DNA of 56,748 nt from an uncultured Alphaproteobacteria bacterium (GCA_902602135.1 CACKQA010000001.1:1-56748), one strand, 5' to 3'. Counted from the stretch's first letter, positions 25,712 through 56,748 are shown. A program made the numbers and translations. The notes: generated by a model not told the origin, from the sequence alone.

Positions 25712-27481
25712 ATGGCAAAAATGACAACAGAAGAGGCTTTCGTAAAAGTTTTACAGAAACACGGTATTCAACACGCTTTTGGAATAATCGGATCTGCCTT
25801 TATGCCTATATCTGATCTTTTTCCTAAAGCTGGAATAACATTTTGGGATGTTGCTCATGAGTCAAACGGCGGAATTATGGCCGATGGCTATACTAGATCA
25901 ACTGGTAAAATCGCAATGTGTATTGCGCAAAATGGACCTGGTATAACTGGCTTAGTTACACCTATAAAAACTGCTTTTTGGAATCACACTCCAATGCTCT
26001 TAGTTACTCCTCAAGCAGCTAATAAAACTATTGGTCAAGGAGGTTTCCAAGAAGTTGAGCAAATGAATTTATTTAAAGATATGGTATGTTATCAAGAAGA
26101 GGTTAGAGATCCATCTAGAGTTGCCGAAGTTTTAAATAGAGTTATTTCAAAAGCTATTAAAGGTTCTGCGCCTGCTCAATTGAATATACCGAGAGATTTT
26201 TGGACTCAAGTTGTTGATATTGATATTCCTTCTATTATTAAATTTGAAAGACCTTCTGGTGGAACAGAAGCAATTAAGGAGGCCGCAAATCTTTTATCTA
26301 ATGCAAAATTCCCAGTTATCTTATCTGGCGCTGGAGTGATTTTAGCTGACGCTATTGATGATTGTAAAAAACTTGCAGAAAAATTAAGTGCTCCAGTTGC
26401 TTGCGGATATCAACATAATGATAGTTTTCCAGGCAAACATCCTCTTGCGGTTGGTCCTTTAGGGTACAATGGATCTAAAGCAGCAATGGAAATAATTTCC
26501 AAGGCAGATGTAGTTCTTGCACTTGGCACAAGGTTAAATCCTTTCTCAACTTTACCTGGTTATGGAATAGATTACTGGCCAAAAAATGCAGATGTCATTC
26601 AAGTTGATATCAATTCTGATCGTATTGGTTTAACAAAAAAAATTAGTGTTGGTATTTGTGGAGATGCAAAACTGGTTGCAGAACAAATTTTAGAAAATCT
26701 TGGAACAAATGCAGGTGATCAAGATCGAAAAGAACGAGAGGAGTTAATTCATAAGACAAAGTCAGCTTGGCTTCAAACATTAACTGGCCTTGATCATGAA
26801 GAAGATGACCCTGGTACATCTTGGAATAAAGATTCACGAGATAGAGAACCAGAAAAAATGTCACCAAGAATGGCATGGCGAGCTATTCAAGCAGGTCTTC
26901 CTGAAGATGCAATTATATCAAGTGATATAGGAAATAACTGTGCTATTGGTAACGCTTACCCAACATTTGAGAATGGTAGAAAGTATTTGGCACCTGGTTT
27001 ATTTGGACCATGTGGCTATGGTTTTCCATCTGTAATTGGAGCAAAGATAGGTTGTCCTAATACACCAGTTGTTGGCTTTGCAGGTGACGGCGCATTTGGA
27101 ATTAGTATGAGTGAAATGACTTCTTGTAACAGAGAAGGTTGGCCAAATATTACAATGATAATTTTTAGAAATTATCAATGGGGAGCAGAGAAAAGAAATA
27201 CTACACTTTGGTATAATAATAATTTTGTTGGAACTGAACTTGATCCTAAACTAAGCTATGCAAAAATTGCAGAAGCTTGTGGATTTAAAGGTGTTAAAGT
27301 TCATACTCAAGAAGAATTGACAGAAGTTTTAAAACAATCATGCAAAGATCAAATGGAAGGTATAACTACTTTTATAGAAGTAATGTTAAATCAAGAGTTA
27401 GGGGAACCTTTTAGAAGAGATGCTATGAAAGCACCAGTTGAAGTTGCTGGAATTGACCCTAAAGATACAGTAGTTCAATAA
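25712..27481 (+). CDS. xsc: Sulfoacetaldehyde acetyltransferase (ThDP-dependent)
   Basis: The N-terminus MAKMTTEEAFVKVLQKHGIQHAFGIIGSAFMPISDLFPKAG closely matches the characteristic Xsc N-terminus as I recall it. It is 589 aa and has the ThDP motif GDGAFG. Confidence 0.85.
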   Translation: MAKMTTEEAFVKVLQKHGIQHAFGIIGSAFMPISDLFPKAGITFWDVAHESNGGIMADGYTRSTGKIAMCIAQNGPGITGLVTPIKTAFWNHTPMLLVTPQAANKTIGQGGFQEVEQMNLFKDMVCYQEEVRDPSRVAEVLNRVISKAIKGSAPAQLNIPRDFWTQVVDIDIPSIIKFERPSGGTEAIKEAANLLSNAKFPVILSGAGVILADAIDDCKKLAEKLSAPVACGYQHNDSFPGKHPLAVGPLGYNGSKAAMEIISKADVVLALGTRLNPFSTLPGYGIDYWPKNADVIQVDINSDRIGLTKKISVGICGDAKLVAEQILENLGTNAGDQDRKEREELIHKTKSAWLQTLTGLDHEEDDPGTSWNKDSRDREPEKMSPRMAWRAIQAGLPEDAIISSDIGNNCAIGNAYPTFENGRKYLAPGLFGPCGYGFPSVIGAKIGCPNTPVVGFAGDGAFGISMSEMTSCNREGWPNITMIIFRNYQWGAEKRNTTLWYNNNFVGTELDPKLSYAKIAEACGFKGVKVHTQEELTEVLKQSCKDQMEGITTFIEVMLNQELGEPFRRDAMKAPVEVAGIDPKDTVVQ

Positions 27482-36187: not shown

Positions 36188-37315
36188 ATGTCTAAAATAT
36201 TAACTACACATGTAGGCAGCTTGCCTAGATCAAAAGGACTTTCAGAAATTTTATTTTCTAAAGATCGGGGTGAAAAATTTATTAAAGAAGATTTCAATAA
36301 TATATTGAAAAAAAATGTTGAGACAATTGTTAAAAAACAGATCGAAGTTGGTATTGATTATATAAGTGACGGTGAAATGAGTAAAATAAGTTATGCCACT
36401 TATATAAAAGATAGGATAGATGGTTTTTCTGGAGAAAGTGAAAGAAGAGCACCAGCTGATTTAGATGATTTTCCAGAGTATAAAGAAAAAATAGCTAAAA
36501 GTGGGGGTACACCAACGTATAGCAGACCGTGTTGTACTAATGCATTAAAAATCAAAGATAAAGATTCATTAAATAAAGACTTAGAGAATTTTAAAAATTC
36601 ATTAGATAAAAACAATCATCAAAAAGCATTTATGAATGCTGCATCACCAGGTGTCATAAATGTATTTATGCCAAATAGGTTTTATAAAACAGATGATGAA
36701 TATTTACATAAACTTTCAGAAATTATGGCTATTGAGTATGAGACAATTACTAAATCAAATATACAAGTGCAATTAGATTGTCCTGATCTTGCATTAGCTA
36801 GACATATGAATTTTAAGGAATTATCCGAACAAGAATTTTTAAAACGTGCGGAAATTCAAATCGAGTGTTTGAATGAAGCTTTAACTAATGTAGATGTTAA
36901 TATGACTAGAATGCATATTTGTTGGGGAAACTATGAAGGACCTCATACACATGATATCCCACTAGAAAAAATATTACCAATAATTTTAAAATCTAAAATT
37001 AAATATTTTTTAATTGAGTCATCAAATCCCAGACACGCACATGAGTGGAAAGTTTTTCAAGATATTAAATTACCAAAAGATAAAGTTTTAGTTCCTGGTG
37101 TTATCGATTCAACATCAAATTTTGTTGAGCACCCTGAGGTTGTAGCAGATAGATTAATTCAGTTTTCAACGGTAATTCCAAAAGACCAACTAATGGCTGG
37201 AACTGATTGCGGATTTAGTACTTTTGCAGGATTTGGCAAAATTGATGAAAATATTTGTTATGAAAAACTTCATTCTTTAGTTGAAGGAACTAAATTAGCA
37301 AACAAAGTTATATAA
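36188..37315 (+). CDS. Single-domain MetE-like (cobalamin-independent methionine synthase C-terminal family) Zn-dependent alkyl/methyltransferase
   Basis: 375 aa with N-terminal TTHVGSLPRS and putative Zn ligands in MHICWGN and GTDCGF. Confidence 0.65.
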   Translation: MSKILTTHVGSLPRSKGLSEILFSKDRGEKFIKEDFNNILKKNVETIVKKQIEVGIDYISDGEMSKISYATYIKDRIDGFSGESERRAPADLDDFPEYKEKIAKSGGTPTYSRPCCTNALKIKDKDSLNKDLENFKNSLDKNNHQKAFMNAASPGVINVFMPNRFYKTDDEYLHKLSEIMAIEYETITKSNIQVQLDCPDLALARHMNFKELSEQEFLKRAEIQIECLNEALTNVDVNMTRMHICWGNYEGPHTHDIPLEKILPIILKSKIKYFLIESSNPRHAHEWKVFQDIKLPKDKVLVPGVIDSTSNFVEHPEVVADRLIQFSTVIPKDQLMAGTDCGFSTFAGFGKIDENICYEKLHSLVEGTKLANKVI

Positions 37316-45270: not shown

Positions 45271-46170
45271 TTAGTTATTTGCAGCAACTACAGCTGCCAT
45301 AATTGATGCAAGTTTAGAATTTTTACTATCTGCTCTACTAGGAACCACAACTGGTACTTTACCACCAATTACTATTCCTGCAGCACAAGCATTCATAAAA
45401 TAAACCATTATTTTAGATAAAGAATTTCCAGTTTCTAAATTAGGTACTAATAATACATCAGTATCACCAGCAACATCGTTCTTAATCCCTTTTATTTTAG
45501 CCGCTTCCTCAGAAACAGCATTATCAAAAGCAAGCGGTCCATGAATAAAAGCATTAATTTTTTCTTCTAACGCAAGTTCCATAACTTTTTTGGCATCAAC
45601 TGAACTTGGCATACTGTCAATTGGATCTTCTGTACCTGATAAAATTGCCACTTTTGGTTTGCTGATGTTTAATTTATTACAAAACTGAACAGCATTTTTG
45701 AGAATCTGTAATTTAATATCAACTCTTGGTGAAACATTCAGGGCGCCATCAGTGATAAAAAGGGGTTTTTTAAGTTGAGGTGTTGTCATATGCCAAATAT
45801 GACTTAATCTTCTACCATCAAGTAAATTAAATTCTTTTTTTAAATAAGAACGCATTAAAATATCAGTATGGAGGTTCCCTTTAATTATGATTTTACTTTT
45901 ATTTTCATTAGACATTTGACAAGCAACTAAAGCACTATCCTCTTCGTCTTTAGCCTCTACAATATTAAAATTTGAAATATCCAAACTTAAATTTTTTGCT
46001 GTTTCTGCAATTAAACTTTTATTTCCAATTAAAGTTGGATCGATGAGGTTCATATTTTTACCTTCAATTACAGCTGATAAAACACTTTCTTGATTGGGGC
46101 ATACAACAGCTGCGGGTATGTTAGGAGTCTCTAAAGCTTTACTTTTAAGATCTTCTGCTAATGTGCTCAT
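45271..46170 (-). CDS. pta: Phosphate acetyltransferase (short PTA_PTB type)
   Basis: 299 aa phosphate acetyl/butyryl transferase fold (GNLHTD, VPNLETGN, SRADS). The call is plausible in context because Xsc produces acetyl phosphate. Confidence 0.7.
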   Translation of the reverse strand: MSTLAEDLKSKALETPNIPAAVVCPNQESVLSAVIEGKNMNLIDPTLIGNKSLIAETAKNLSLDISNFNIVEAKDEEDSALVACQMSNENKSKIIIKGNLHTDILMRSYLKKEFNLLDGRRLSHIWHMTTPQLKKPLFITDGALNVSPRVDIKLQILKNAVQFCNKLNISKPKVAILSGTEDPIDSMPSSVDAKKVMELALEEKINAFIHGPLAFDNAVSEEAAKIKGIKNDVAGDTDVLLVPNLETGNSLSKIMVYFMNACAAGIVIGGKVPVVVPSRADSKNSKLASIMAAVVAANN

Positions 46171-46212
46171 ATTTGGTATTCTCTCTATACCACTGCTACA
46201 ATTTTTCCTATG

Positions 46213-46238
46213 ATATTTCTTTATTGTGTAAGAAATAT
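46213..46238. promoter_or_regulatory. Inverted repeat ATATTTCTT-N8-AAGAAATAT in the pta / aminotransferase divergent spacer
   Basis: 9-bp perfect arms. No cognate regulator is encoded nearby. Confidence 0.25.
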
Positions 46239-46288
46239 TCTTTGATTTATCGATAATTTCATATACTCAATCTCTAATAAGGAAAAAA

Positions 46289-47629
46289 ATGGACTTAGAA
46301 AAAAGAACTGAAATACCTAATTCACTAGAAGAACATTGGATGCCATTTACATCTAATAGAGATTATAAAAATAGTCCAAGATTAATGGTTAAGGCAGAAG
46401 GTGTTTATTATACTGATCATTATGGAAATAAATTAATTGATGCTAGCTCAGGATTATTTTGTAGTCCAGCTGGTCATTCAAGACCAGAAATAAGAGAAGC
46501 AGTATCAAAACAATTAGAGCAATTAGATTATGTTCAACCATTCCAACAAGGTTTTGGTGGTTCATTTGATTTAGCTAGAAAAGTTTCAAAACATACACCC
46601 GAAGATTTAAATAAAATATTTTTTACTATTTGTGGTTCATCAGCTGTTGAAACAGCAATTAAAACAGCCATAGCATATTTTAAAGCAAAAGGAGAAGGTC
46701 ATAGATCTCACATAGTAGGAAGAGAAAGAGGTTATCATGGAATGAATATTGGAGGAATTTCTGTTGGTGGAATGATTGCTAATAGAAAAACTTTCTCAAA
46801 TATTCTTATGCCAAATGTACATCATCTAAGACATACTCACTTACCTGAAAATTTATTTGTAAAAGGTGAACCTGAAACAGGTGCTGATCTTGCAGATGAT
46901 CTTGAAAGAATTGCTGGTAACATTGGTGCAGAAAATATTGCTGCATGTATTGTTGAGCCAGTAGCAGGATCAACAGGAACTTTAGTTCCGCCAAAAGGAT
47001 ATTTAAAAAGATTAAGAGAAATTTGTGACAAGCACGGAATTCTTTTAATTTTTGATGAAGTTATTACTGGATGGGGAAGAATGGGTGCTCCATTTGCAGC
47101 CCAAGCTTTTGATGTTTGTCCTGATATCATGACAATGGCTAAAGCAATTACTAATGGTGTTGTCCCTTTAGGAGCAGTAGCTTCACGTGATCATATCTAT
47201 GATACTATAGTTGATGCTTCACCTACAGGAGCAATAGAATTTTTTCATGGCTACACTTATTCCGCTATACCTGTTTCAATGGCAGCAGGTTTAGCAATGC
47301 AGGATATAATTGAGAAAGAGGATTTATTTAATAGGGCTAAAGATATGTCCCCATATTTCTTAGATGGTTTATTTTCTTTGAAGGATTTAGATATCATTAC
47401 AGACATAAGAGGATATGGAATGATGGGAGGAATTGACATTAAAATGGATGAGCGTTTAGGCAAAGCTGGATATGCTTGTTTTAAAAAATTATTTGAAGCA
47501 GGTTTAAGCTTAAAAGCAACAGGTGATTGTTTAATCGTTGCACCTCCATTTACTTGTGAAAAAAAACATATTGATGAGATAATTGAAAAATTAAGAACAG
47601 GTATCTCAAACTATATGCATGATAGATAA
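46289..47629 (+). CDS. Class III (omega) aminotransferase; taurine/beta-alanine:pyruvate aminotransferase candidate
   Basis: 446 aa with DEVITGWGRMG and a PLP-Lys context MTMAKAITNG. It is followed directly by ald. Confidence 0.8.
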   Translation: MDLEKRTEIPNSLEEHWMPFTSNRDYKNSPRLMVKAEGVYYTDHYGNKLIDASSGLFCSPAGHSRPEIREAVSKQLEQLDYVQPFQQGFGGSFDLARKVSKHTPEDLNKIFFTICGSSAVETAIKTAIAYFKAKGEGHRSHIVGRERGYHGMNIGGISVGGMIANRKTFSNILMPNVHHLRHTHLPENLFVKGEPETGADLADDLERIAGNIGAENIAACIVEPVAGSTGTLVPPKGYLKRLREICDKHGILLIFDEVITGWGRMGAPFAAQAFDVCPDIMTMAKAITNGVVPLGAVASRDHIYDTIVDASPTGAIEFFHGYTYSAIPVSMAAGLAMQDIIEKEDLFNRAKDMSPYFLDGLFSLKDLDIITDIRGYGMMGGIDIKMDERLGKAGYACFKKLFEAGLSLKATGDCLIVAPPFTCEKKHIDEIIEKLRTGISNYMHDR

Positions 47630-48744
47630 TGAAAATAGGCGTTCCATCTGAGATTAAAGCTCAGGAGTCTAGAGTTGGGCTTACCCCACAAAGTATCAAA
47701 GAATTAGTAAAAGATAAACATACTGTTCTTATTCAAAAAGATGCTGGTATTGGTGCAGGCTTTTCTAATAGTGATTATGAATTGTCAGGTGCTAAAATTG
47801 TAAATTCAGCTGAAGATATTTTCAATGATTCTGAAATGATCGTAAAAGTAAAAGAACCTCTAATGAATGAAGTAGCAATGATAAGAGAAAACCAAATTTT
47901 ATTTACTTATTTACATCTTTCAGCAGCTCCAGAATTGACAAAGGGTTTAATTGATTCAAATTCAATTTGTATAGCTTATGAAACGGTAAGTGATCATAAT
48001 AATAAATTACCTCTACTAGCACCAATGAGCGCTGTAGCAGGTAGAATGTCTATACAAGCCGGGGCATATTCTCTTGAAAAACATAAGGGTGGAAGTGGTT
48101 TACTTTTAGGTGGCGCGCCTGGAGTTCAACCTGGAAATGTCTTAATTTTAGGTGGAGGTGTTGTAGGAGAAAATGCAGCAATAATTGCTACCGGTATGCA
48201 AGCAAAAGTTTTCATCGTTGATAAATCAGAAAAAAGATTAGAAGAATTACAAGAAAAATTTGGTGATAAAATAGAACCACTGCATAGTGATAAAATAAAT
48301 CTAAAAGATTATATTGCTGAATGTGATTTACTAATTGGTGGCGTACTTGTTCCGGGTTCTAATGCTCCTAAGATTATAACTAAGGACATGATCAAAGATA
48401 TGAAAAGTGGATCTGTGATTGTTGATGTTGCAATTGATCAAGGTGGTTGTGTTGAAACTAGTAAACCAACAACTCATGCAAACCCTACGTATGTTGTTGA
48501 TGATGTTGTTCATTACTGTGTTGCAAATATGCCAGGAGGAGTTCCTAGAACTTCCACACTTGCTTTAAACGCAGTTACTTTACCATTTATTCAAAACTTA
48601 GCTTCTAACGGTTTTAATGATGCTTTAAAAAATGATAAAAACTTTATGAATGGTTTAAATATTTTTAAAGGTGCAGTTACATATAAAGCTATTGCTGATG
48701 ATTTAAATTATGATTATGCTAATCCAGAAACTTTAGTTCACTAG
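47629..48744 (+). CDS. ald: Alanine dehydrogenase
   Basis: 371 aa with [10 protein letters not shown], the GGGVVG NAD fold and a HYCVANMPG motif. Confidence 0.95.
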
Positions 48745-49790
48745 AAACTATTAGAAGCTTCAACCATTATTTTTAATTTTATTTTTGCTAAATTTCGAGG
48801 TAAGTGACCAAGACCGCAATCAGGAGCAACAATTAATTGTTCTTTATCAATAAATTTCAATGTTTCATTTATTCTAGAGACTATTTCTTCTTTAGTCTCA
48901 ATTTGAGAGCTTGCAATTTTTATCAAACCAAAAATAACTTTTGTTTGATTAAAATCTTTTAAAAAATCTAGATCATTATATCGATGAGCATCTTCTATAG
49001 AAACTGTATCTATAATTGATTCATCTAAAGCTTTACTAATTTTACTGTAAGAATCTAAAGGTGCTTTTGGATAATTTACTGCATCTAATTTATCAGGATA
49101 GCCGCAACAAATATGAGTAATTTTTTCAATACTTTGATTATTTATATCTTTAAAACATCTTTCTAGGTTTTTGATTCCAAAATTAAGAGCATTCTCGGGT
49201 TTTCTAGCAAACAAAGGTTCATCGACTTGAATATATTTACATCCTGCATCAACTAATCTTTTAATTTCTACATTAATGGCATCAGCTAAGTCTTCACCCA
49301 TATGTTCATCTGAATCATAAAATATATTTGCTATAGTATCTGTTATAGTCATTGGTCCTGGAATAGTAATTTTCAAATCCTTATTGGTTAAACTCTGATT
49401 TTTTTTCCACTCTTCAACTAAAAAAGATTCTTTTGCTTTAACTTTCGAAGTTATTGTTGGTAACCAGCATTTATAATTCCCTGTCCTAGCAATTTTTTCT
49501 GAGAGATTTGCAAAATCAATACCTTCTAAATATCTACAATGATAGTGAATATAATTTTCTCTTCTAACTTCACCATCGGTGAGGATATCAATACCGCATT
49601 CCTCCTGATCTCGAATTATTTCTTTTGTAGCCTTATTAAATAACTCTTCAATATTATTGCCCATCTTTTTTATTTCATCTTCATAAAATTTAGTTGGATA
49701 TTCAGTATCAGTACCACCAGAAGCATTAAACCAATCAGTTATTTTTAAATAACTTGGTTTTGGGTAGGCGCCTATAACAGTAGTTAACAT
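48741..49790 (-). CDS. Single-domain MetE-like Zn-dependent alkyl/methyltransferase (second copy)
   Basis: MLTTVIGAYPKP N-terminus (compare TTHVGSLPRS in the paralog). Putative Zn ligands lie in THICCGY and APDCGLGH. I set the start at ATG 49790, 7 nt after the sulfatase stop. The longer ORF-track form starts at a GTG inside the sulfatase gene. Confidence 0.65.
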   Translation of the reverse strand: MLTTVIGAYPKPSYLKITDWFNASGGTDTEYPTKFYEDEIKKMGNNIEELFNKATKEIIRDQEECGIDILTDGEVRRENYIHYHCRYLEGIDFANLSEKIARTGNYKCWLPTITSKVKAKESFLVEEWKKNQSLTNKDLKITIPGPMTITDTIANIFYDSDEHMGEDLADAINVEIKRLVDAGCKYIQVDEPLFARKPENALNFGIKNLERCFKDINNQSIEKITHICCGYPDKLDAVNYPKAPLDSYSKISKALDESIIDTVSIEDAHRYNDLDFLKDFNQTKVIFGLIKIASSQIETKEEIVSRINETLKFIDKEQLIVAPDCGLGHLPRNLAKIKLKIMVEASNSF

Positions 49791-49797
49791 ATCTTCA

Positions 49798-51333
49798 TTA
49801 TTCCATTTTTCTGCTAAATGGTCCAGAATTTGAATTAACACCTAAACTAGAAAGTTTAGTATTTGATAATTGTCGCTCCTGATGAATCATGCGGTGACTT
49901 AACAATTTTGATACTAGCTCATTTTTAATGTCTTGCAATTCTCCTAGGTTTGATAGATCATTTATTTCCTGAGGATCCTTTTCTAAATCAAATAATAAAC
50001 ATGGCAATGAAGGAAAATGAACATATTTCCATTTATTATTTCTAATGACTGATAGATTACATTGTTCGGGAGCTAATTTTTTATTTTTAACAAATGAAGT
50101 ACTTTCTCTAAAATCATAATCAAAAACAACATATTCCTTATTAGGTGATTTTTCGTATTGATTGTTAATATTATGCATTAGTGATTGACCATTCCAATCA
50201 ATGGGGATTTCACCACCAAGCCATTCTAAAATTGTAGGAGCAACATCTACAGATTCAGTTAAGTGGTTGATTTCATTCGCACTGTTTTGGGGTACATAAA
50301 TAAATAATGGAATTCTATATGAAGAGTCCCACCAACCTAATTTTCCCCATAAATTATTTTCATTAAGCATTTCTCCATGATCGCTGGTAAATATTATCAT
50401 TGTATTCTCTTCTTGCCCTGATTCTTTAAGAGCATTTAAAATTTTACCTATATTAAAATCAACTTCAGCGCACATGGCAAAATAGACACTCATAATATTT
50501 TTGATATCTTGATCTTTCAAAAGATCATAATTAATTTCAGAGAAATTTTCTTTAATTAAAAATTTTTTACATAATTCTTCAAGTAAAGGATGTTTTTTTG
50601 ATAATTCTTTTAGTGAAATATCATTTTTAGATAAATTAATATTATCTGGATTAAATTTACTAAACCATGGATCAGCAACATGCCGCGGAGGATGAGGTTT
50701 TAAAAAAGATACATGCATAAAAAATGGGTCTTTAATTTTTTTTAAATCATTGACCACTTTGTCTGCTAAAAATGCGGTATCTGAAAATTCAGTTGGAATA
50801 TAATATGGTTTATAAATATATGCTTGATCATCTTTAGGCTTTCTTCCCTTGTATAAATCTTCTGCTTTATTAATTTCAAAACCATTTTGATTAAGATGGT
50901 TTGCCCAAGGCTCTGGTTTTCCTCCTGGTAAAACACAACCATCATCAAATCCTTCCATTGGCGATTCATAGGTAAAGTTTTTTTTATCTTTTGGGTCTAA
51001 GTATCTTGGATCCCAAGATGTATCAGTGTATCCATAAAGACTTGGATTATACTTTAGCTTACGAACTTCTTTAGCAATATTTGTAAATCTTTTGTCAAGA
51101 GGTGCACCATTATAAACTGAACGATGTATAAATGGATATAATCCCGTAAGCATAGTAGTTCTAGATGGTCCACAGGGAACAATTCCTGCAAAATGCGATT
51201 TAAAAACAACACTTTGTTTTGCAAGCTTATCCAAGTTTGGTGTCAAAGCATGAGGATGCTCTAGAAAGCTAAAGCAATCAAAACGCCATTGATCAGCACA
51301 TATAAAAAGAACAGATTTTTTGGTTTTTTCCAT
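49798..51333 (-). CDS. Cytoplasmic formylglycine-type sulfatase (alkaline-phosphatase superfamily)
   Basis: Signature CGPSRTTMLTG (C-x-P-S-R), N-terminal metal site region FICADQWRFD and FTSDHGE. It is 511 aa with no signal peptide. Confidence 0.8.
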   Translation of the reverse strand: MEKTKKSVLFICADQWRFDCFSFLEHPHALTPNLDKLAKQSVVFKSHFAGIVPCGPSRTTMLTGLYPFIHRSVYNGAPLDKRFTNIAKEVRKLKYNPSLYGYTDTSWDPRYLDPKDKKNFTYESPMEGFDDGCVLPGGKPEPWANHLNQNGFEINKAEDLYKGRKPKDDQAYIYKPYYIPTEFSDTAFLADKVVNDLKKIKDPFFMHVSFLKPHPPRHVADPWFSKFNPDNINLSKNDISLKELSKKHPLLEELCKKFLIKENFSEINYDLLKDQDIKNIMSVYFAMCAEVDFNIGKILNALKESGQEENTMIIFTSDHGEMLNENNLWGKLGWWDSSYRIPLFIYVPQNSANEINHLTESVDVAPTILEWLGGEIPIDWNGQSLMHNINNQYEKSPNKEYVVFDYDFRESTSFVKNKKLAPEQCNLSVIRNNKWKYVHFPSLPCLLFDLEKDPQEINDLSNLGELQDIKNELVSKLLSHRMIHQERQLSNTKLSSLGVNSNSGPFSRKME

Positions 51334-51375
51334 ATTTACTAATAATTATTAAAGTAATTAATTAGCAAGAAATAC

Positions 51376-51397
51376 ACAATTTTTTACAAAAAACTGT
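51376..51397. promoter_or_regulatory. Imperfect A/T-tract palindrome ACAATTTTTT-AC-AAAAAACTGT in the sulfatase / SBP divergent spacer
   Basis: Arm positions pair at 9/10. The nearby direct repeat GTCAAA(T/A)TT occurs twice. Confidence 0.15.
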
Positions 51398-51484
51398 AAT
51401 AAAAGTGTCAAATTTTTTTGCTAAAAAGTCAAAATTGTTTACAAACTAAATCATACGATAAATTTATCTTATAGGAGAAAATAT

Positions 51485-53539
51485 ATGTTAAAAAAATTAT
51501 TCATAGCGTTGGTATTTTCTTCCGCAACTTTTGTTTGGAGTGGAAGCTCTTTTGCAGGTGGTCATTGTGTAGGTACAACAATGAACGATGCACAGACAGG
51601 CGGAAAATATCCTCAGCAATATGAGTTGTCGGAATATGAAAGTGCAGCCAGCTGTACGATGAAATTTTCTGACAATCCAAATATTGCTAGCATTAACGCT
51701 ACAATACAAGGTAACCCAGGAAGTCTACCTCCAGTTGAGGATAGATTACCTGACGAGCCGCTTGTTGTAGTGCCATATGATTCTATTGGTAAATATGGAA
51801 ATACAATAAACTTTTTATCAAACGCAACTGAAGCTGGAACTTCAGATATGTTATCTACAAGACACGTTAACTTATTACGTTTTGCTGATGACTTAAGTAC
51901 AATTGTTCCAAACGTTGCTAAAGATTATGAGTGGAATGATGATTTTACTACTTTAACGTTCATGTTACGTAAAGGTCACAAGTGGTCAAACGGTGAACCT
52001 TTTGTAGCAAGAGATGTTGAGTTTTGGTACGAAGATTTGATGATGAATCCAAATATTCGTGAAAAACCATATCCATATCTATTAGTTGGTGGTGAACCAA
52101 TGACTGTTGATGTAATTGATGATCAAACAGTAAGATTTAATTTGCCATCACCATTCCCTGGTTTAACTGCAACTATTGCATGGTCATATAACCAGTTCTT
52201 TATGCCTTCACATTTCCTAGAACAATTCCATCCGGATATTGATGCAAATGCAGATGCAAATGCACAAGCTTTAGGATTTGAAAACGGTTATGATGCTTTA
52301 GCAGCATATTATGGTAACTCTGGTTGGACTGATACTCCAACTCCTTTACTTGCTAGACCTGATCTAGTTGATGGATTGCCTTATGCTGCGTATCCTTCTT
52401 TAGAAGCTTATATGACTATTGAAGATACTACTGAAGGTAGAGTCTATGCAGCTAACCCATACTTTTTCCAAGTTGATACAGCTGGAAATCAATTACCATA
52501 CATTGATTATCAAAATGAAAGATACATCAATGAAAATGAAATAAGATTATTAAAACTTGTTAATGGTGAAGTTGATTATAAATCTCAGTCTGTTCAATTA
52601 GAGTCTGCTCCTCAATTACTTGATGGTGCTGAGTCTGGTGGATATCAAGTTCAAATCAATCCAGGTTGTGGTGCTGCATTATTTAGTTTTAATGTTACAC
52701 ATCCTGATCCTGAAAAACGTAAAGTATATGGGGATATTCGTTTCCGTCAAGCAATGTCAATTGCGATGAATAGAGACGAAATCAACGAAGTTGCATATTA
52801 CGGCTTAGGTAAAGTTGAGCAGTTTGTAGGATTTTCTCCTGCACCTGACTTCGTTCCTGAAAGTATAAAAATGCATATGACTCAATACGATCCAGATGGA
52901 GCAAATGCTCTTCTTGATGAAGTAGGATTAAAAGACGTTGATGGTGATGGATTTAGAGAATTACCAAATGGTGATGCTCTAGCTATTAACATAGACTACG
53001 CTACTCAAGGTATTGGTGGTGTTGAAGTTGAACTTGTTGCTAGATACTTCAATGAAGTAGGTGTAAAAACTACTTTTAAAGAGGTAACTCCAGATGAATA
53101 TCGTGGTTCGCAAGCTGCAAACCAACTTGATGTTCACGTTTGGGACAAAGGTCAACCATTAGCAATTGTTGCTGGTAACCCAGAAACATTTAAACCTCCG
53201 TTTGGTAATTACTTTAACCATACACAAGGTTTAGATTGGGCAGCATACATTGATAGTAATGGTGACGAAGGTACTAAACCTCCTCAGTGGGTATATGACT
53301 TAAGTGATGGAATTGATAAATTCCAATCTTACGCTCTTGGTACTGCTGAATCTAATGAGTGGGGTGAAAAAATTGCAACAATGTTAACAGAGCAAAGTCT
53401 ATTGATTGGTACGGTGAAAGCACCTTTCCCAACTTATCATAGAAATGCGTTGAAAAACTTTACACAATTTAAAACTACTTCGTATGAGTATTATAGAACA
53501 TACCCATACCTAGCTACTCAATGGTGGTTAGACGAGTAA
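51485..53539 (+). CDS. ABC transporter substrate-binding protein, family 5 (peptide/opine/nickel type), unusually long
   Basis: Signal peptide (..WSGSSFAG) and 684 aa, followed by DppB/DppC/DppD-type genes. Confidence 0.8.
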   Translation: MLKKLFIALVFSSATFVWSGSSFAGGHCVGTTMNDAQTGGKYPQQYELSEYESAASCTMKFSDNPNIASINATIQGNPGSLPPVEDRLPDEPLVVVPYDSIGKYGNTINFLSNATEAGTSDMLSTRHVNLLRFADDLSTIVPNVAKDYEWNDDFTTLTFMLRKGHKWSNGEPFVARDVEFWYEDLMMNPNIREKPYPYLLVGGEPMTVDVIDDQTVRFNLPSPFPGLTATIAWSYNQFFMPSHFLEQFHPDIDANADANAQALGFENGYDALAAYYGNSGWTDTPTPLLARPDLVDGLPYAAYPSLEAYMTIEDTTEGRVYAANPYFFQVDTAGNQLPYIDYQNERYINENEIRLLKLVNGEVDYKSQSVQLESAPQLLDGAESGGYQVQINPGCGAALFSFNVTHPDPEKRKVYGDIRFRQAMSIAMNRDEINEVAYYGLGKVEQFVGFSPAPDFVPESIKMHMTQYDPDGANALLDEVGLKDVDGDGFRELPNGDALAINIDYATQGIGGVEVELVARYFNEVGVKTTFKEVTPDEYRGSQAANQLDVHVWDKGQPLAIVAGNPETFKPPFGNYFNHTQGLDWAAYIDSNGDEGTKPPQWVYDLSDGIDKFQSYALGTAESNEWGEKIATMLTEQSLLIGTVKAPFPTYHRNALKNFTQFKTTSYEYYRTYPYLATQWWLDE

Positions 53540-53625: not shown

Positions 53626-54639
53626 ATGATTAATTTTATACAATTTACTCTCACAAGAGCAGGACTTGCAGTTATAACTTTGCTTCTTGTATGCTTTATT
53701 GTTTTTTCGTTAATGGAATTAGTTCCTGGAACTTGTGCTGAAAGATATCTTGCATTTAAAAATACACAAGGATCACAAATAACTTATGAAGATATAGAAA
53801 AAGAAAAAATTCGTTTAGGTTTGGATAAACCTTTTTTATATAGATATGGCAAATGGGTTTCTAATATAGTTTTTAATGGAGATTTTGGTGACAGTTGTAT
53901 TTTAAGAATGAATATTAATGAATTATTAAGTGGAAGATTTACTTTATCTTTAACAATATGTTTGGTTGCACTAATATTTTCATATTTAATAGCCATACCA
54001 GTTGGGATTATATCGGCCACGACAAAATATGCTTCTTTAGATAACACCCTTAAATTTATTAGTTATCTTGGAATAGCTCTCCCCAACTTTTTAGTAGCAC
54101 TCTGTATTATGCTTTTTATGACTGTTTATTATGGAGACACAATGACGGGTCTCTTCTCTCAAGAATATGAAAACGAACCTTGGTCATCGGCAAAGCTATT
54201 TGATTTCCTAAGCAGAGCTTGGCTTCCAATTTTTGTTTTAGGCTGGAACGCTACCGCTTTTGCTCTTCAGACAGTTAGAGCGCTGATGCTAGATGAAAAT
54301 GATAAATTATATGTAATGGCAGCAAGAGCTAGAGGAATATCAGGGATGAGTTTGTTGTGGAGATATCCTGCAAAACATTCTTTAGGACCAGTTATTAATT
54401 CTATAGGTTTTGACCTTAATCGAATATTTAGTGCATTACCAATTGTAGCATTAATTTTAATTCTTACGGAAGCTGGTGCACTATTGATTGAAGCTTTAGC
54501 AAGATCAAATGATCAGCAATTAGCAGGCGCAATTATTTTTCTTTTAACAGCAACAATTGTTTTTGTTAATTTTATAACGGATATTATTTTAGCTATAATT
54601 GATCCAAGAATAAGAAAAGGAGTTATGGGTGGAGGTTAG
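53626..54639 (+). CDS. ABC transporter permease (DppB/OppB-like)
   Basis: 337 aa polytopic protein with the family-typical N-terminal TM and C-terminal DPRIR motif. Confidence 0.85.
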   Translation: MINFIQFTLTRAGLAVITLLLVCFIVFSLMELVPGTCAERYLAFKNTQGSQITYEDIEKEKIRLGLDKPFLYRYGKWVSNIVFNGDFGDSCILRMNINELLSGRFTLSLTICLVALIFSYLIAIPVGIISATTKYASLDNTLKFISYLGIALPNFLVALCIMLFMTVYYGDTMTGLFSQEYENEPWSSAKLFDFLSRAWLPIFVLGWNATAFALQTVRALMLDENDKLYVMAARARGISGMSLLWRYPAKHSLGPVINSIGFDLNRIFSALPIVALILILTEAGALLIEALARSNDQQLAGAIIFLLTATIVFVNFITDIILAIIDPRIRKGVMGGG

Positions 54640-55789
54640 TAATCAAAAAAAAGAAGCTTATTATACTGCAACGCAGATGCAGTTAGTAAGAACACGCTTT
54701 TTTGGAAATAGATCAGCTATGATTGCTGGCTCTATTTTATTGTTTATGATTATTTGTAGTCTCTTTGCAGATTTTCTATCTCCTTACGATCCAACAATTA
54801 AGGGAAGAGACAAAGATTATGAAAATGGAGCACCTCAAATTCCAATGTTTTGGGATGATAATGGATTTTCAGCTAGGCCATTTCTACACACATTAGAAAA
54901 GTATAGAGGAGCAGATACAAATTTCAGATGGGTTTATAAAGTTGATACTGAAAAAAGAAGATACGTTTATTTTTTTGTTGAAGGATGGGAATATAAAGTT
55001 TTTGATTTTAATATAAATCTTCCAGGAAAAATTTTAGATTTTAAAATTCCAGGTTTTACATTTAATACTCATTTATTTGGCGTTGAAGAGGGTGGAATTC
55101 ATATATTTGGAACAGATAAGGCTGGAAAAGATTTATTTAGCAGAACCTTAAGTGCAATTTACATTTCGCTAGCTGTAGGTACACTTGGAGTTTTTATATC
55201 TTTTGTACTATCGCTAATTATAGGTGGAATATCAGGTTACTATGGCGGATGGATTGATAGTGTATTGCAGATGTTTACTGATGCAATTCGAACGGTACCA
55301 CCAATACCTTTATTTATGTGTCTTGCTGCATTTGCGCCATTAGAATGGAGTTCTGAATTACGTTTCTTTTTTATATCATGTTTACTTGGATTAATTTCGT
55401 GGCCAACACTTGCAAGAAGAGTAAGAACTCATCTACTTAGTGAAAGAAGCCAAGAATATATTCTTGCTGCAAAACTTTGTGGTGCGTCATCCACTCATAT
55501 TATTGTAAGACATTTATTACCAAGTTTTACGAGTTACATTATTGTCGATTTAGTAATTAGTTTTCCATACATGTTATTATCTGAAACTGCTTTAAGTTTT
55601 ATAGGATTAGGCTTAAGAGAACCAGTAAACTCACTTGGTGTTCTTTTGCAAAATGCAACTAAGGCTGATGTACTTTTAAATTATCAATGGTATTTTATCC
55701 CTGTATTTTTCTTAGTCGTATTAATTTTAACATTTGTTTATGTAGGAGATGGATTACGTGATGCAGCAGATCCTCACAAGGTAAAGTAA
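54629..55789 (+). CDS. ABC transporter permease (DppC/OppC-like) with an enlarged periplasmic loop
   Basis: 386 aa with a C-terminal GDGLRDAADP motif. It overlaps the upstream gene by 11 nt. Confidence 0.85.
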   Translation: MEVSNQKKEAYYTATQMQLVRTRFFGNRSAMIAGSILLFMIICSLFADFLSPYDPTIKGRDKDYENGAPQIPMFWDDNGFSARPFLHTLEKYRGADTNFRWVYKVDTEKRRYVYFFVEGWEYKVFDFNINLPGKILDFKIPGFTFNTHLFGVEEGGIHIFGTDKAGKDLFSRTLSAIYISLAVGTLGVFISFVLSLIIGGISGYYGGWIDSVLQMFTDAIRTVPPIPLFMCLAAFAPLEWSSELRFFFISCLLGLISWPTLARRVRTHLLSERSQEYILAAKLCGASSTHIIVRHLLPSFTSYIIVDLVISFPYMLLSETALSFIGLGLREPVNSLGVLLQNATKADVLLNYQWYFIPVFFLVVLILTFVYVGDGLRDAADPHKVK

Positions 55790-55790
55790 T

Positions 55791-56748
55791 ATGAGTCACT
55801 TATTAGAAGTAAAAAACTTAGATGTAAAATTTGATACTGATGAAGGTAGAATAACAGCAGTTGAAAATATTTCTCTTTCTGTAGATCAAGGAGAGGTACT
55901 TGGTATAGTTGGCGAATCTGGATCAGGTAAATCTGTTACAGCTAAATCGATTATGAAGTTAAACCCTGGTAATACCTCTTATAATGAAGACGCAGAAATA
56001 ATTTTAGACAACGAAAACATTCTTCAATTTACTTCTAAGCAAGACTTAAAAAAAATTAGAGGTGGAAAAGTATCAATGATTTTTCAAGAACCTATGGCAA
56101 GCTTTGCTCCAGCAATAAAAATTGGTGCACAAATGGTTGAGCAATTACTAATTCATAAAAATATTAATAAAGATGAAGCAAAATCAATATCTATAAATAT
56201 GCTTAAAAGAGTAGGTATAGCTGATGCAGAAAAACGGTTTAATCAATATGCATTTGAACTATCTGGAGGAATGCGTCAAAGAGCTATGATAGCTATGGCA
56301 TTATCAACTATGCCTAAACTTTTATTAGCAGATGAGCCAACAACTGCTTTAGATGTAACAATTCAAGCTCAAGTAATTAACTTAATTAAAGATATTATTA
56401 AAGAATATCAAATGGGCGTAATATTTATTACTCATGATCTAGGTGTTATTGCTCAGGTCGCTGATCATGTAGCGGTTATGTATTTGGGAAGTGTAGTGGA
56501 GAAAGGTCCAGTAAATGAGATTCTTAAAAATCCCAAACATCCTTATACAAAAGGTTTATTGCAAGCCTTGCCTGATATAAATAACTTAGATGCACCATTA
56601 TCCCCAATACCTGGAAACATTCCAAGTCCATTAGATAGACCTACAGGCTGTGTGTTTAGAACTAGATGCCCTCGTCACAATCCAGAGGGTAAAGATGGTA
56701 AAATTGAAATGAAATTAATTGAAGTTGAACCAGGTCACTGGGTTGATC
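55791..56748 (+). CDS. ABC transporter ATP-binding protein (DppD/OppD-like), truncated by the window end
   Basis: Walker A GESGSGKS, signature LSGGMRQR and Walker B LLLADEPTTALD, with the oligopeptide-type C-terminal extension beginning (HPYTKGLL). Confidence 0.9.
   Translation, partial: MSHLLEVKNLDVKFDTDEGRITAVENISLSVDQGEVLGIVGESGSGKSVTAKSIMKLNPGNTSYNEDAEIILDNENILQFTSKQDLKKIRGGKVSMIFQEPMASFAPAIKIGAQMVEQLLIHKNINKDEAKSISINMLKRVGIADAEKRFNQYAFELSGGMRQRAMIAMALSTMPKLLLADEPTTALDVTIQAQVINLIKDIIKEYQMGVIFITHDLGVIAQVADHVAVMYLGSVVEKGPVNEILKNPKHPYTKGLLQALPDINNLDAPLSPIPGNIPSPLDRPTGCVFRTRCPRHNPEGKDGKIEMKLIEVEPGHWVD

Follow-up and report, generated by a model that had tools for sequence, protein, structure and literature searches.

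A predicted phosphonate monoester hydrolase gene and a MetE-like gene form a conserved transcription unit beside an oligosaccharide-type ABC importer in the marine AG-337-I02 lineage

Phosphonate monoester hydrolases (PMHs) are hydrolases of the sulfatase fold. Hollfelder and colleagues reported that two active-site positions separate the PMHs, which carry Tyr and Thr or Asp, from their sister arylsulfatases, which carry Lys-A and His-A, that in both groups the second metal-site Asp is replaced by Gln, and that a promiscuous sulfatase activity of PMHs is measurable (PMC5488252). In isolates, pmh genes are found beside phnWX and phnWYA (2026 paper, PMC13608971). Genes for single-domain MetE-like proteins, in turn, are labelled "metE" in the literature (PMC10030771), and the function of core-MetE homologues in aerobic marine bacteria has been doubted (PMC12478193); we found no functional study of such genes. 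Here, we analysed a 56,748-nucleotide stretch of DNA from an uncultured Alphaproteobacteria bacterium (GCA_902602135.1, CACKQA010000001.1:1-56748; G+C content 30%), called the window below, in which a gene for a PMH-type hydrolase is directly followed by a MetE-like gene, opposite a divergent family-5 ATP-binding cassette (ABC) importer. An initial annotation, made from the sequence alone, had described the pair as a sulfatase coupled to an alkyltransferase and knew of no pathway joining sulfate-ester hydrolysis to a zinc-thiolate alkyl transfer; in the literature searched, we likewise found neither a pathway nor a description pairing a sulfatase-fold hydrolase with a MetE-like enzyme. The evidence given below strongly supports a real and long-conserved two-gene transcription unit in the AG-337-I02 lineage, which is not, however, the fixed two-step sulfatase–methyltransferase pathway that its gene content might suggest.

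The hydrolase gene (49798..51333, minus strand, 511 amino acids) ends with a stop codon at 49798-49800, and after a spacer of 7 nt (49791..49797, minus strand), read directly from the sequence, the MetE-like gene (48741..49790, minus strand, 349 amino acids) starts with an ATG at 49790. An upstream GTG at 49841 is not the start, since every MetE-like orthologue begins with MLTTVIGAYP, as does the product of the ATG at 49790. The hydrolase gene and the divergent ABC operon share an intergenic region of 151 bp (51334..51484).

Homologues were surveyed in 187 genomes of the order, and counts for the genus refer to 104–105 genomes. The source assembly comprises 0.96 Mb in 75 contigs, with a completeness of 59%, and its close locus relatives are single-cell genomes, among them the single-amplified genome (SAG) AG-337-I02, in which the hydrolase is 93% identical to that of the window. 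AG-337-I02 also serves as a genus label in the AEGEAN-169/order HIMB59 group, formerly SAR11 subclade V (PMC8692485), and we treat the source organism as AEGEAN-169/HIMB59-type, belonging to the AG-337-I02 lineage, which is abundant in the ocean. Hydrolase orthologues (58–100% identity) are present in about 70 of the 104 genus genomes, and one more comes from a sister genus. The MetE-like gene lies 0–7 nt downstream, on the same strand, in all 58 of the 58 hydrolase open reading frames for which downstream DNA is present, over a range of hydrolase identities of 56–100%, and the recurrence of both order and spacing indicates that the pair is more than a chance arrangement. Two genomes are apparent exceptions to this linkage: in G057 the contig stops at the hydrolase, and in G002 the hydrolase is found on a separate contig and has an internal TAA. 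This G002 copy (L085:8959-10524), which is 62% identical to the window hydrolase, is not on the contig of the genome's own MetE-like gene, which carries a PotD-type importer instead, and it may be a decaying copy.

A consensus scan detected no terminator-like site at the junction of the two genes, and the promoter-like sites that it returned across the pair region were not commoner than in shuffled sequence. Upstream of either gene, comparison with Rfam gave no match, however weak, and neither a riboswitch nor another RNA element, and the search of the 151-bp divergent spacer for operator-like palindromes returned only AT-rich imperfect inverted repeats. The junction (49790-49800) is bridged by contigs from metatranscriptome libraries in four runs belonging to four different studies, which we take as support and not as proof, because these are contigs, and carry-over of DNA into the libraries is possible; the depth of such contigs cannot rank expression, and gaps in their cover are no evidence of absence. 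Taken with the conserved spacing, co-transcription of the hydrolase and the MetE-like gene is nearly certain, and translational coupling across the 7 nt is plausible. The open reading frames, the spacing and the divergent family-5 system starting at 51485 are therefore as the initial annotation described them, and, at the level of transcription, its proposal that the two genes are expressed together is supported by other genomes and by the RNA libraries.

The class of the hydrolase was assigned from model scores, E-values and signature residues. Residues 8-373 match the Pfam Sulfatase family (PF00884) with 170 bits, against a cut-off of 25 bits. Among the NCBIfam models the best score is that of PehA, a phosphoric/sulfuric ester hydrolase (410 bits), followed by arylsulfatase (184 bits) and choline sulfatase (180 bits), all of them below their cut-offs, which are as high as 900 bits for the PehA equivalog (NF045661) and 433 bits for the BetC model (TIGR03417). 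The closest solved structures, by phmmer, are the PMHs 4uph, 2w8s, 2vqr, and 4upk (E-values of 1e-92 to 1e-80, 274–312 bits), which align end to end with the hydrolase (residues 3-500); the PMH-like arylsulfatases SpAS1 and SpAS2 match with E-values of 1e-53 and 1e-45, and the choline sulfatases with about 1e-27. The active site is formed by D14-Q15, C54GPSR58, Y102, D104, H214, D318-H319, and K331, with the metal-binding and catalytic residues intact. At the positions of Lys-A and His-A the hydrolase has Tyr102 and Asp104, which is the D-PMH state, and this segment aligns with GYTDT of 4uph and GYTTT of BcPMH. The GYTDT motif is kept in 62 of the 64 full-length homologues and CGPSR or CGPAR in all 64, and the whole set of GYTDT, DQW, CGP(S/A)R, (T/S)SDHG, and (K/R)PHPP is retained in 62–64 of them, down to 41% identity.

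The first conserved strand, which includes the metal ligand D14, begins at residue 7, leaving no space for a signal peptide, so that the protein is likely to be cytoplasmic. These features strongly support the prediction of an intact, cytoplasmic, D-type PMH, as opposed to a secreted arylsulfatase, and in this respect the earlier placement of the enzyme on the PMH/choline-sulfatase side was correct. The same cannot be said of its description as primarily a sulfatase, or a choline sulfatase: the Tyr102/Asp104 pair, and a PehA score that exceeds the choline sulfatase score by 410 to 180 bits, make this unlikely. The best substrates are most likely phosphonate monoesters or phosphodiesters, with sulfate esters turned over as a side activity at best. 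Some activity on sulfate esters is possible, since PMHs are promiscuous and, to our knowledge, have no assigned natural substrate. The initial annotation had itself named an inactive or phosphatase-type homologue as the alternative to a sulfatase, and the PMH signature goes part of the way towards the phosphatase-type half of that alternative.

The nucleophile of such enzymes, here Cys54, is matured by conversion to formylglycine, and the window had been noted to encode no enzyme for this step. The same holds on a wider scale: no formylglycine-generating enzyme (FGE) domain was found in the source assembly (59% complete), and no anaerobic sulfatase-maturating enzyme (anSME) scored above the cut-off in the 105 genus genomes. 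A gene with an FGE domain is present in 18 of these 105 genomes; 10 of the 18 carry the PMH gene, versus about 70% of all genomes, which shows that the two genes do not track each other, and near-complete genomes such as G079 (96%) have the PMH gene without any FGE match. The FGE-domain gene was considered as a maturase of the PMH-type hydrolase and rejected, given the lack of co-occurrence, its position next to a different sulfatase, and the missing catalytic cysteine pair. In genome G052 (L092:124-2100), the locus in which this gene was read, the different enzyme is a 424-residue Cys-type sulfatase (CSPSR), followed after 12 nt by the 229-residue FGE-domain protein, which reads RGGSFYYAHDHWH, with the His-rich stretch YYAHDHWH, at the site where canonical FGEs carry their two catalytic cysteines. 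In several genomes this cassette is located about 20 kb from the PMH locus. E. coli, on the other hand, matures enzymes of this type without a recognisable FGE, and the exchange of Cys for Ser costs only about tenfold in activity (PMC5488252), so that the hydrolase need not be inactive; the lack of a known maturase is no proof of an unmodified Cys54.

The MetE-like protein has Meth_synt_2 as its sole domain (136 bits, profile positions 21-322 of 324), and its best solved relative is MesD (3rpd, 139 bits). It scores 111 bits with the model for full-length MetE (TIGR01371), against a cut-off of 930 bits, and is not a two-barrel protein. We call this 349-residue kind type A, to distinguish it from a paralogue of 359–360 residues and about 50% identity, type B, found in other genomes. 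All copies of types A and B retain H226, C228, E266, and C325, which bind zinc, together with the ligands of the homocysteine amino group, E74 and D190 (Glu484 and Asp599 in E. coli). The Ser that binds the carboxylate in MetE and MesD (E. coli Ser433) is replaced by Ala8 in every copy of both types, for which reason the thiol may not be homocysteine. A third, more distant MetE-like protein of 375 residues is encoded in the window itself (36188-37315, plus strand), where it is part of the neighbouring LacI-controlled island; it keeps both the Ser and a His/Cys/Cys zinc site. No separate gene for the folate-binding domain, Meth_synt_1, was found in the source assembly or in four near-complete relatives, and a split MetE with a folate-binding domain encoded elsewhere was rejected on these grounds. 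A search of five genomes for MesX (DUF1852) gave no match, but control genomes were equally silent, so that its absence is weakly supported; no DUF1852 gene is present in any locus examined.

The family is small, with 164 clusters at E < 1e-30 in an exhaustive profile-free search, and its members include eukaryote-like transcripts, a protein of a nemertean worm and a fusion to a class-I S-adenosylmethionine (SAM) methyltransferase. The homologues with 45–48% identity are P0249 (359 residues, from the nemertean Tubulanus, XP_074652062.1) and P0243, the latter encoded on short, single-gene contigs that resemble eukaryotic transcripts (L093 and L094). In P0244 (625 residues) a family member is fused to the class-I SAM methyltransferase domain; in L106 (8013-10068) a SAM methyltransferase is the upstream neighbour of a family member, and in L087 (11191-12297), as well as in L089, a putative methyltransferase of 368 residues, grouped in this way only by a language-model search, follows PhpC. 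Since the partnership with SAM methyltransferases recurs, methionine would fit as the product. The "MetE-fusion" of Phaeocystis was considered as the closest described relative and rejected, as it comprises a PP-binding domain, a MetE domain, and Pyr_redox_2, and no bacterial function is given for it.

The MetE-like gene does not depend on the hydrolase for its place: at least 15 genomes have a type-A orthologue (68–100% identity) but no hydrolase with it. Three layouts can be distinguished. In the layout of the window, T1 (60 loci examined), the family-5 ABC importer is divergent from the hydrolase and the MetE-like gene that follows it. In T2 (10 loci examined) the importer is the same, with a binding protein 85–95% identical to that of the window, and the hydrolase is replaced by a gene for a 302-residue protein, which heads the importer operon on the opposite strand (L070:8031-8939, minus strand; the same slot in L071-L079). 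In T3 (5 loci examined) there is no hydrolase, and a PotD/PhnS-type importer with a PhnT2-like ATPase (346 bits) is divergent from the MetE-like gene. The 302-residue protein is a metallohydrolase of the PHP/CehA-McbA type, for which the score is 77 bits against a cut-off of 80 bits and the language-model neighbours are PHP-domain clusters; a search of solved structures gave no sequence match. The PHP family is known for phosphoesterases, and we know of no sulfatase in it.

In the maximum-likelihood tree of the MetE-like proteins, T1 loci are split over three positions, at two of which they are nested within T2 loci, and T3 is placed toward the base. This scattering indicates repeated exchanges in the hydrolase slot, next to a MetE-like gene and an importer that remained in place, and it strongly supports the view that the hydrolase is an exchangeable accessory of the divergent ABC importer, and that the gene for the single-barrel zinc enzyme is the older resident of the locus. 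The obligate two-step pathway that the gene pair had suggested does not survive this result, as the MetE-like gene keeps its place in hydrolase-free genomes. Furthermore, two non-homologous esterases alternate beside a nearly identical binding protein, and one of them belongs to a phosphoesterase family, which favours an imported phospho(no)ester over a sulfate ester.

The importer begins with a family-5 substrate-binding protein of 684 residues (51485..53539, plus strand; SBP_bac_5, 178 bits), of the carbohydrate branch, for which this length is usual, and continues with two Opp/Dpp-type permeases and a first ATPase that runs off the window (53626..56747, plus strand; Pfam BPD_transp_1, OppC_N, ABC_tran, and oligo_HPY). 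In relatives these are followed by a second ATPase, then by MatE (in the T1 relative L069) or EamA (in T2 loci), and then by an aldose 1-epimerase. The nearest solved binding proteins are 5ipw, SPH1118, which we take to be a pectin-oligosaccharide binder, the alpha-galactoside binder AgpA, and a chitin-oligosaccharide binder, with peptide, nickel, and opine binders scoring far lower. The binding-protein gene adjoins the pair, or its slot, in every T1 and T2 locus, and every type-A or type-B MetE-like copy adjoins an ABC importer. The divergent system is thus the conserved partner that had been proposed, of the oligosaccharide-binding type and not of the peptide/opine type previously assumed, and it would take up a sugar or polyol ester that the hydrolase cleaves. 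At the start of the binding-protein gene (51408-51700) the contig word depths are 10–80 times those of the hydrolase and MetE-like genes in three of the four metatranscriptome runs, which hints at high expression of the binding protein but at no more than that, since contig depth is a poor measure.

On its other side, the MetE-like gene is convergent, with a 4-nt overlap, with an alanine dehydrogenase gene. The latter is part of an amine/sulfoacetaldehyde module (45271..48744), formed by Pta on the minus strand and by an AptA-like class-III aminotransferase and the alanine dehydrogenase on the plus strand (NCBIfam scores of 307 for the Pta type, 587 for AptA, and 480 bits for alanine dehydrogenase). 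The distal member of the same sulfonate module, the sulfoacetaldehyde acetyltransferase Xsc, is encoded at 25712..27481 (plus strand; TIGR03457, 954 bits with a cut-off of 676 bits), and in L070 only about 3 kb separate it from Pta. Gene-by-gene maps of 25 type-A loci show the convergent alanine dehydrogenase and AptA-like genes, with Pta beyond, in 23 of them, that is, in all except L003 and its duplicate L058. Some relatives have an arginase-family, DUF1989 or alanine racemase gene inserted between the MetE-like and alanine dehydrogenase genes (L069:10619-13254, L075:10062-11039, and L077:10127-12055), and these insertions suggest that several amine precursors, guanidino compounds among them, converge on the aminotransferase/alanine dehydrogenase module.

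Phosphonate genes appear as we move away from the window. In L003, where the hydrolase is 56% identical, a single strand carries the hydrolase, the MetE-like gene, PhnA (494 bits, cut-off 408 bits), an aldehyde dehydrogenase, and PhnW (520 bits). Of four contigs examined that carry PMH homologues, two (L004 and L065, 42–43% identity) have PhnW/PhnA-type and aldehyde dehydrogenase genes next to the homologue. The type-B paralogue is embedded in an operon with the order PhnA (485 bits), PhnY (760 bits, cut-off 636 bits), UgpB-like binding protein, MetE-B, and a PhpC-type dehydrogenase (384 bits, below the TIGR03405 cut-off of 424 bits), with permeases and ATPase divergent. This order is common to both families of the order (L087:4900-11200, L101:4887-11201, L102, and L103; genomes G051, G142, G154, and G174), and in one of these families the operon is adjoined by PhnW (513 bits) and by an SpdA-like metallophosphodiesterase. 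PhpC has been described as a catabolic 2-hydroxyethylphosphonate dehydrogenase, in a report that does not mention the MetE-like gene (PMC13576164), and we found no mention in the literature of a MetE-like gene in PhnA-PhnY-PhpC clusters. Both MetE-like paralogues stand beside importers and beside genes for X-CH2-CH2-phosphonate or -sulfonate compounds, and three unrelated esterase families (PMH, PHP, and metallophosphoesterase) are found near them.

The reading that we prefer, and to which we give about an even chance, is that the conserved transcription unit joins a swappable importer accessory of the PMH type to a resident MetE-like thiol methyltransferase, independent of folate and B12, that is tied to the catabolism of C2 phosphonates and sulfonates. 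A sugar or polyol phospho(no)ester would be imported by the divergent family-5 system and de-esterified by the PMH-type hydrolase. The MetE-like enzyme, needing neither folate nor B12, would methylate homocysteine or a closely similar thiol, taking the methyl group from an imported methylated compound of the 2-aminoethylphosphonate/2-hydroxyethylphosphonate/taurine family. Once de-esterified and demethylated, the product would be passed on to the neighbouring Xsc/Pta/aminotransferase module or, in relatives, to the PhnW/PhnY/PhnA module.

Several points weigh against this proposal. PMHs are promiscuous enzymes to which we know of no natural substrate being assigned, so that sulfate esters are possible substrates. 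The scores of PehA and of all methionine-synthase models are below the curated cut-offs, Ala8 takes the place of the carboxylate-binding Ser, and most genomes with the hydrolase gene have no recognisable maturase for the Cys54 nucleophile. The aminotransferase and alanine dehydrogenase genes are convergent with the pair and not co-transcribed with it, so that they are linked by conserved neighbourhood only. The distant family members L105 and L107, as well as the animal homologue P0249, have no phosphonate context, and the bridging contigs may in part reflect carried-over DNA.

A more far-reaching version, which we consider unlikely, would place the type-A and type-B proteins in a new class of homocysteine methyltransferases that depend on neither folate nor B12 and whose donor is an imported methylated C2 organophosphonate or organosulfonate (an N-methyl onium form or an O-methyl ester of a compound of the 2-aminoethylphosphonate, 2-hydroxyethylphosphonate or taurine type), supplied from marine dissolved organic matter by interchangeable esterases (PMH, PHP, and metallophosphoesterase). 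If this is true, the new methyltransferase class would be an unrecognised "phosphonate breakdown factor", and the scavenging of P and S would be coupled to methionine synthesis in abundant ocean bacteria.

The rival that survives best, although on balance we find it somewhat unlikely, is that the adjacency is incidental: the MetE-like protein would be the alternative methionine synthase of the lineage, and the hydrolase a flexible cassette that uses the promoter region of the importer. A MetE-like gene that persists where the hydrolase is replaced or missing is what this would predict, as is the occurrence of distant family members in unrelated contexts; the lineage has neither a full-length MetE nor a separate folate-binding domain gene, and the recurring class-I SAM methyltransferases (P0244, L106, and L087/L089) fit a role in the methionine/SAM cycle. 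However, an order and a gap of 0–7 nt that are kept over hydrolase identities of 56–100% would be a long-lived outcome of a chance insertion, all copies of types A and B adjoin an ABC importer, and paralogue B is embedded in a phosphonate catabolic operon. Besides, there is no SAM riboswitch at the locus, unlike the situation in Pelagibacter, where SAM-V riboswitches control bhmT, mmuM, and metY (PMC5069961).

We regard as improbable the interpretation closest to the original one, in which the hydrolase is genuinely a sulfatase, located in the cytoplasm, whose substrate is an imported osmolyte that is both sulfated and methylated (choline-O-sulfate, for example, or a sulfated amino compound), and the MetE-like enzyme carries out an obligatory second alkyl or methyl transfer. 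The intact CxPxR motif with its metal and catalytic residues, the tight linkage and co-transcription, the organosulfur surroundings (Xsc, Pta, and aminotransferase), and the measurable sulfatase activity of PMHs (PMC5488252) would all agree with it. Against this stand the diagnostic Lys-A and His-A positions, occupied by Tyr and Asp, a choline-sulfatase score that is under both its cut-off (180 versus 433 bits) and the PehA score, a PHP metallohydrolase of a phosphoesterase family as the alternative occupant of the slot, the persistence of the MetE-like gene without any hydrolase, and the association of the hydrolase relatives with phosphonate genes. Finally, it is very improbable that the MetE-like enzyme alkylates or dealkylates a C2 thiol or thioether (a coenzyme M (CoM)-like mercaptoethane-sulfonate or -phosphonate) in the manner of epoxyalkane:CoM transferase, also a single-domain member of the MetE family, because the protein keeps the Glu and Asp ligands of the homocysteine alpha-amino group, we saw no gene for the synthesis or use of such thiols, and the association with SAM methyltransferases points to methionine, even if the change of the carboxylate Ser to Ala in all type-A and type-B copies, with the Ser kept in the third MetE-like protein of the window, and the consistent vicinity of C2 sulfonate and phosphonate genes speak for such a thiol.

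Several of the observations reported here are new. These are the D-PMH residue test, the PHP hydrolase as alternative occupant of the slot, the tree with repeated exchange, and the PhnA-PhnY-MetE-B-PhpC operon across both families, together with the SAM-methyltransferase partnership, the non-canonical FGE-like gene, the carbohydrate-type binding protein, and the RNA-library contigs across the junction. A PMH fixed beside a defined importer, in an abundant ocean lineage, provides a concrete route to the natural substrate of a PMH. The presence of the MetE-like gene in PhnA-PhnY-PhpC operons and beside Xsc/Pta suggests an unrecognised marine organophosphonate or organosulfonate step, or a new route to methionine, and surveys in which these genes are counted as "sulfatase" and "metE" probably mislabel both.

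Compared with the closest described systems, the MetE-like protein shares with MesD (3rpd; Price et al. 2021, PMC7857596) the single C-terminal MetE barrel, the His-Cys-Glu-Cys zinc site, the Glu and Asp ligands of the homocysteine amino group, and the occurrence in an aerobe without B12 dependence. It differs in its score of 139 bits, in contrast to the level of about 390 bits at which MesD homologues keep MesX as a neighbour (PMC7857596), in the Ala that replaces Ser22 of MesD, and in its context, which is that of an ABC importer and of phosphonate/sulfonate catabolism instead of methionine biosynthesis. The hydrolase has in common with the PMHs (RlPMH, 2vqr; BcPMH = PehA, 2w8s; 4uph; 4upk) the predicted cytoplasmic location, the length of about 510 residues, CxPxR, the Asp-Gln metal pair, the Tyr/Asp of D-PMHs, H214, D318-H319, and K331, and also the genomic association with phnW, phnA, and phnY that is seen in isolates. 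The similarity is moderate, at 274–312 bits and with 410 bits where PehA membership is set at 900, and the arrangement with a MetE-like follower and a carbohydrate-type family-5 importer is one that we did not find described for any PMH. BetC is likewise a cytoplasmic Cys-type enzyme of the sulfatase fold that acts on a small imported ester, but the window hydrolase is set apart from it by the TIGR03417 score (180 versus 433 bits), by the E-value of 1e-27, and by Tyr/Asp in place of Lys-A/His-A, and no betA, betB or betI genes are present. The agrocinopine acc system, whose esterase AccF we take to be of the GlpQ type, and thus of another family than the window hydrolase, and which presumably has no MetE-like partner, is comparable by its logic alone: its family-5 binding protein AccA presumably imports a sugar phosphodiester, which is then cleaved by the adjacent cytoplasmic esterase.

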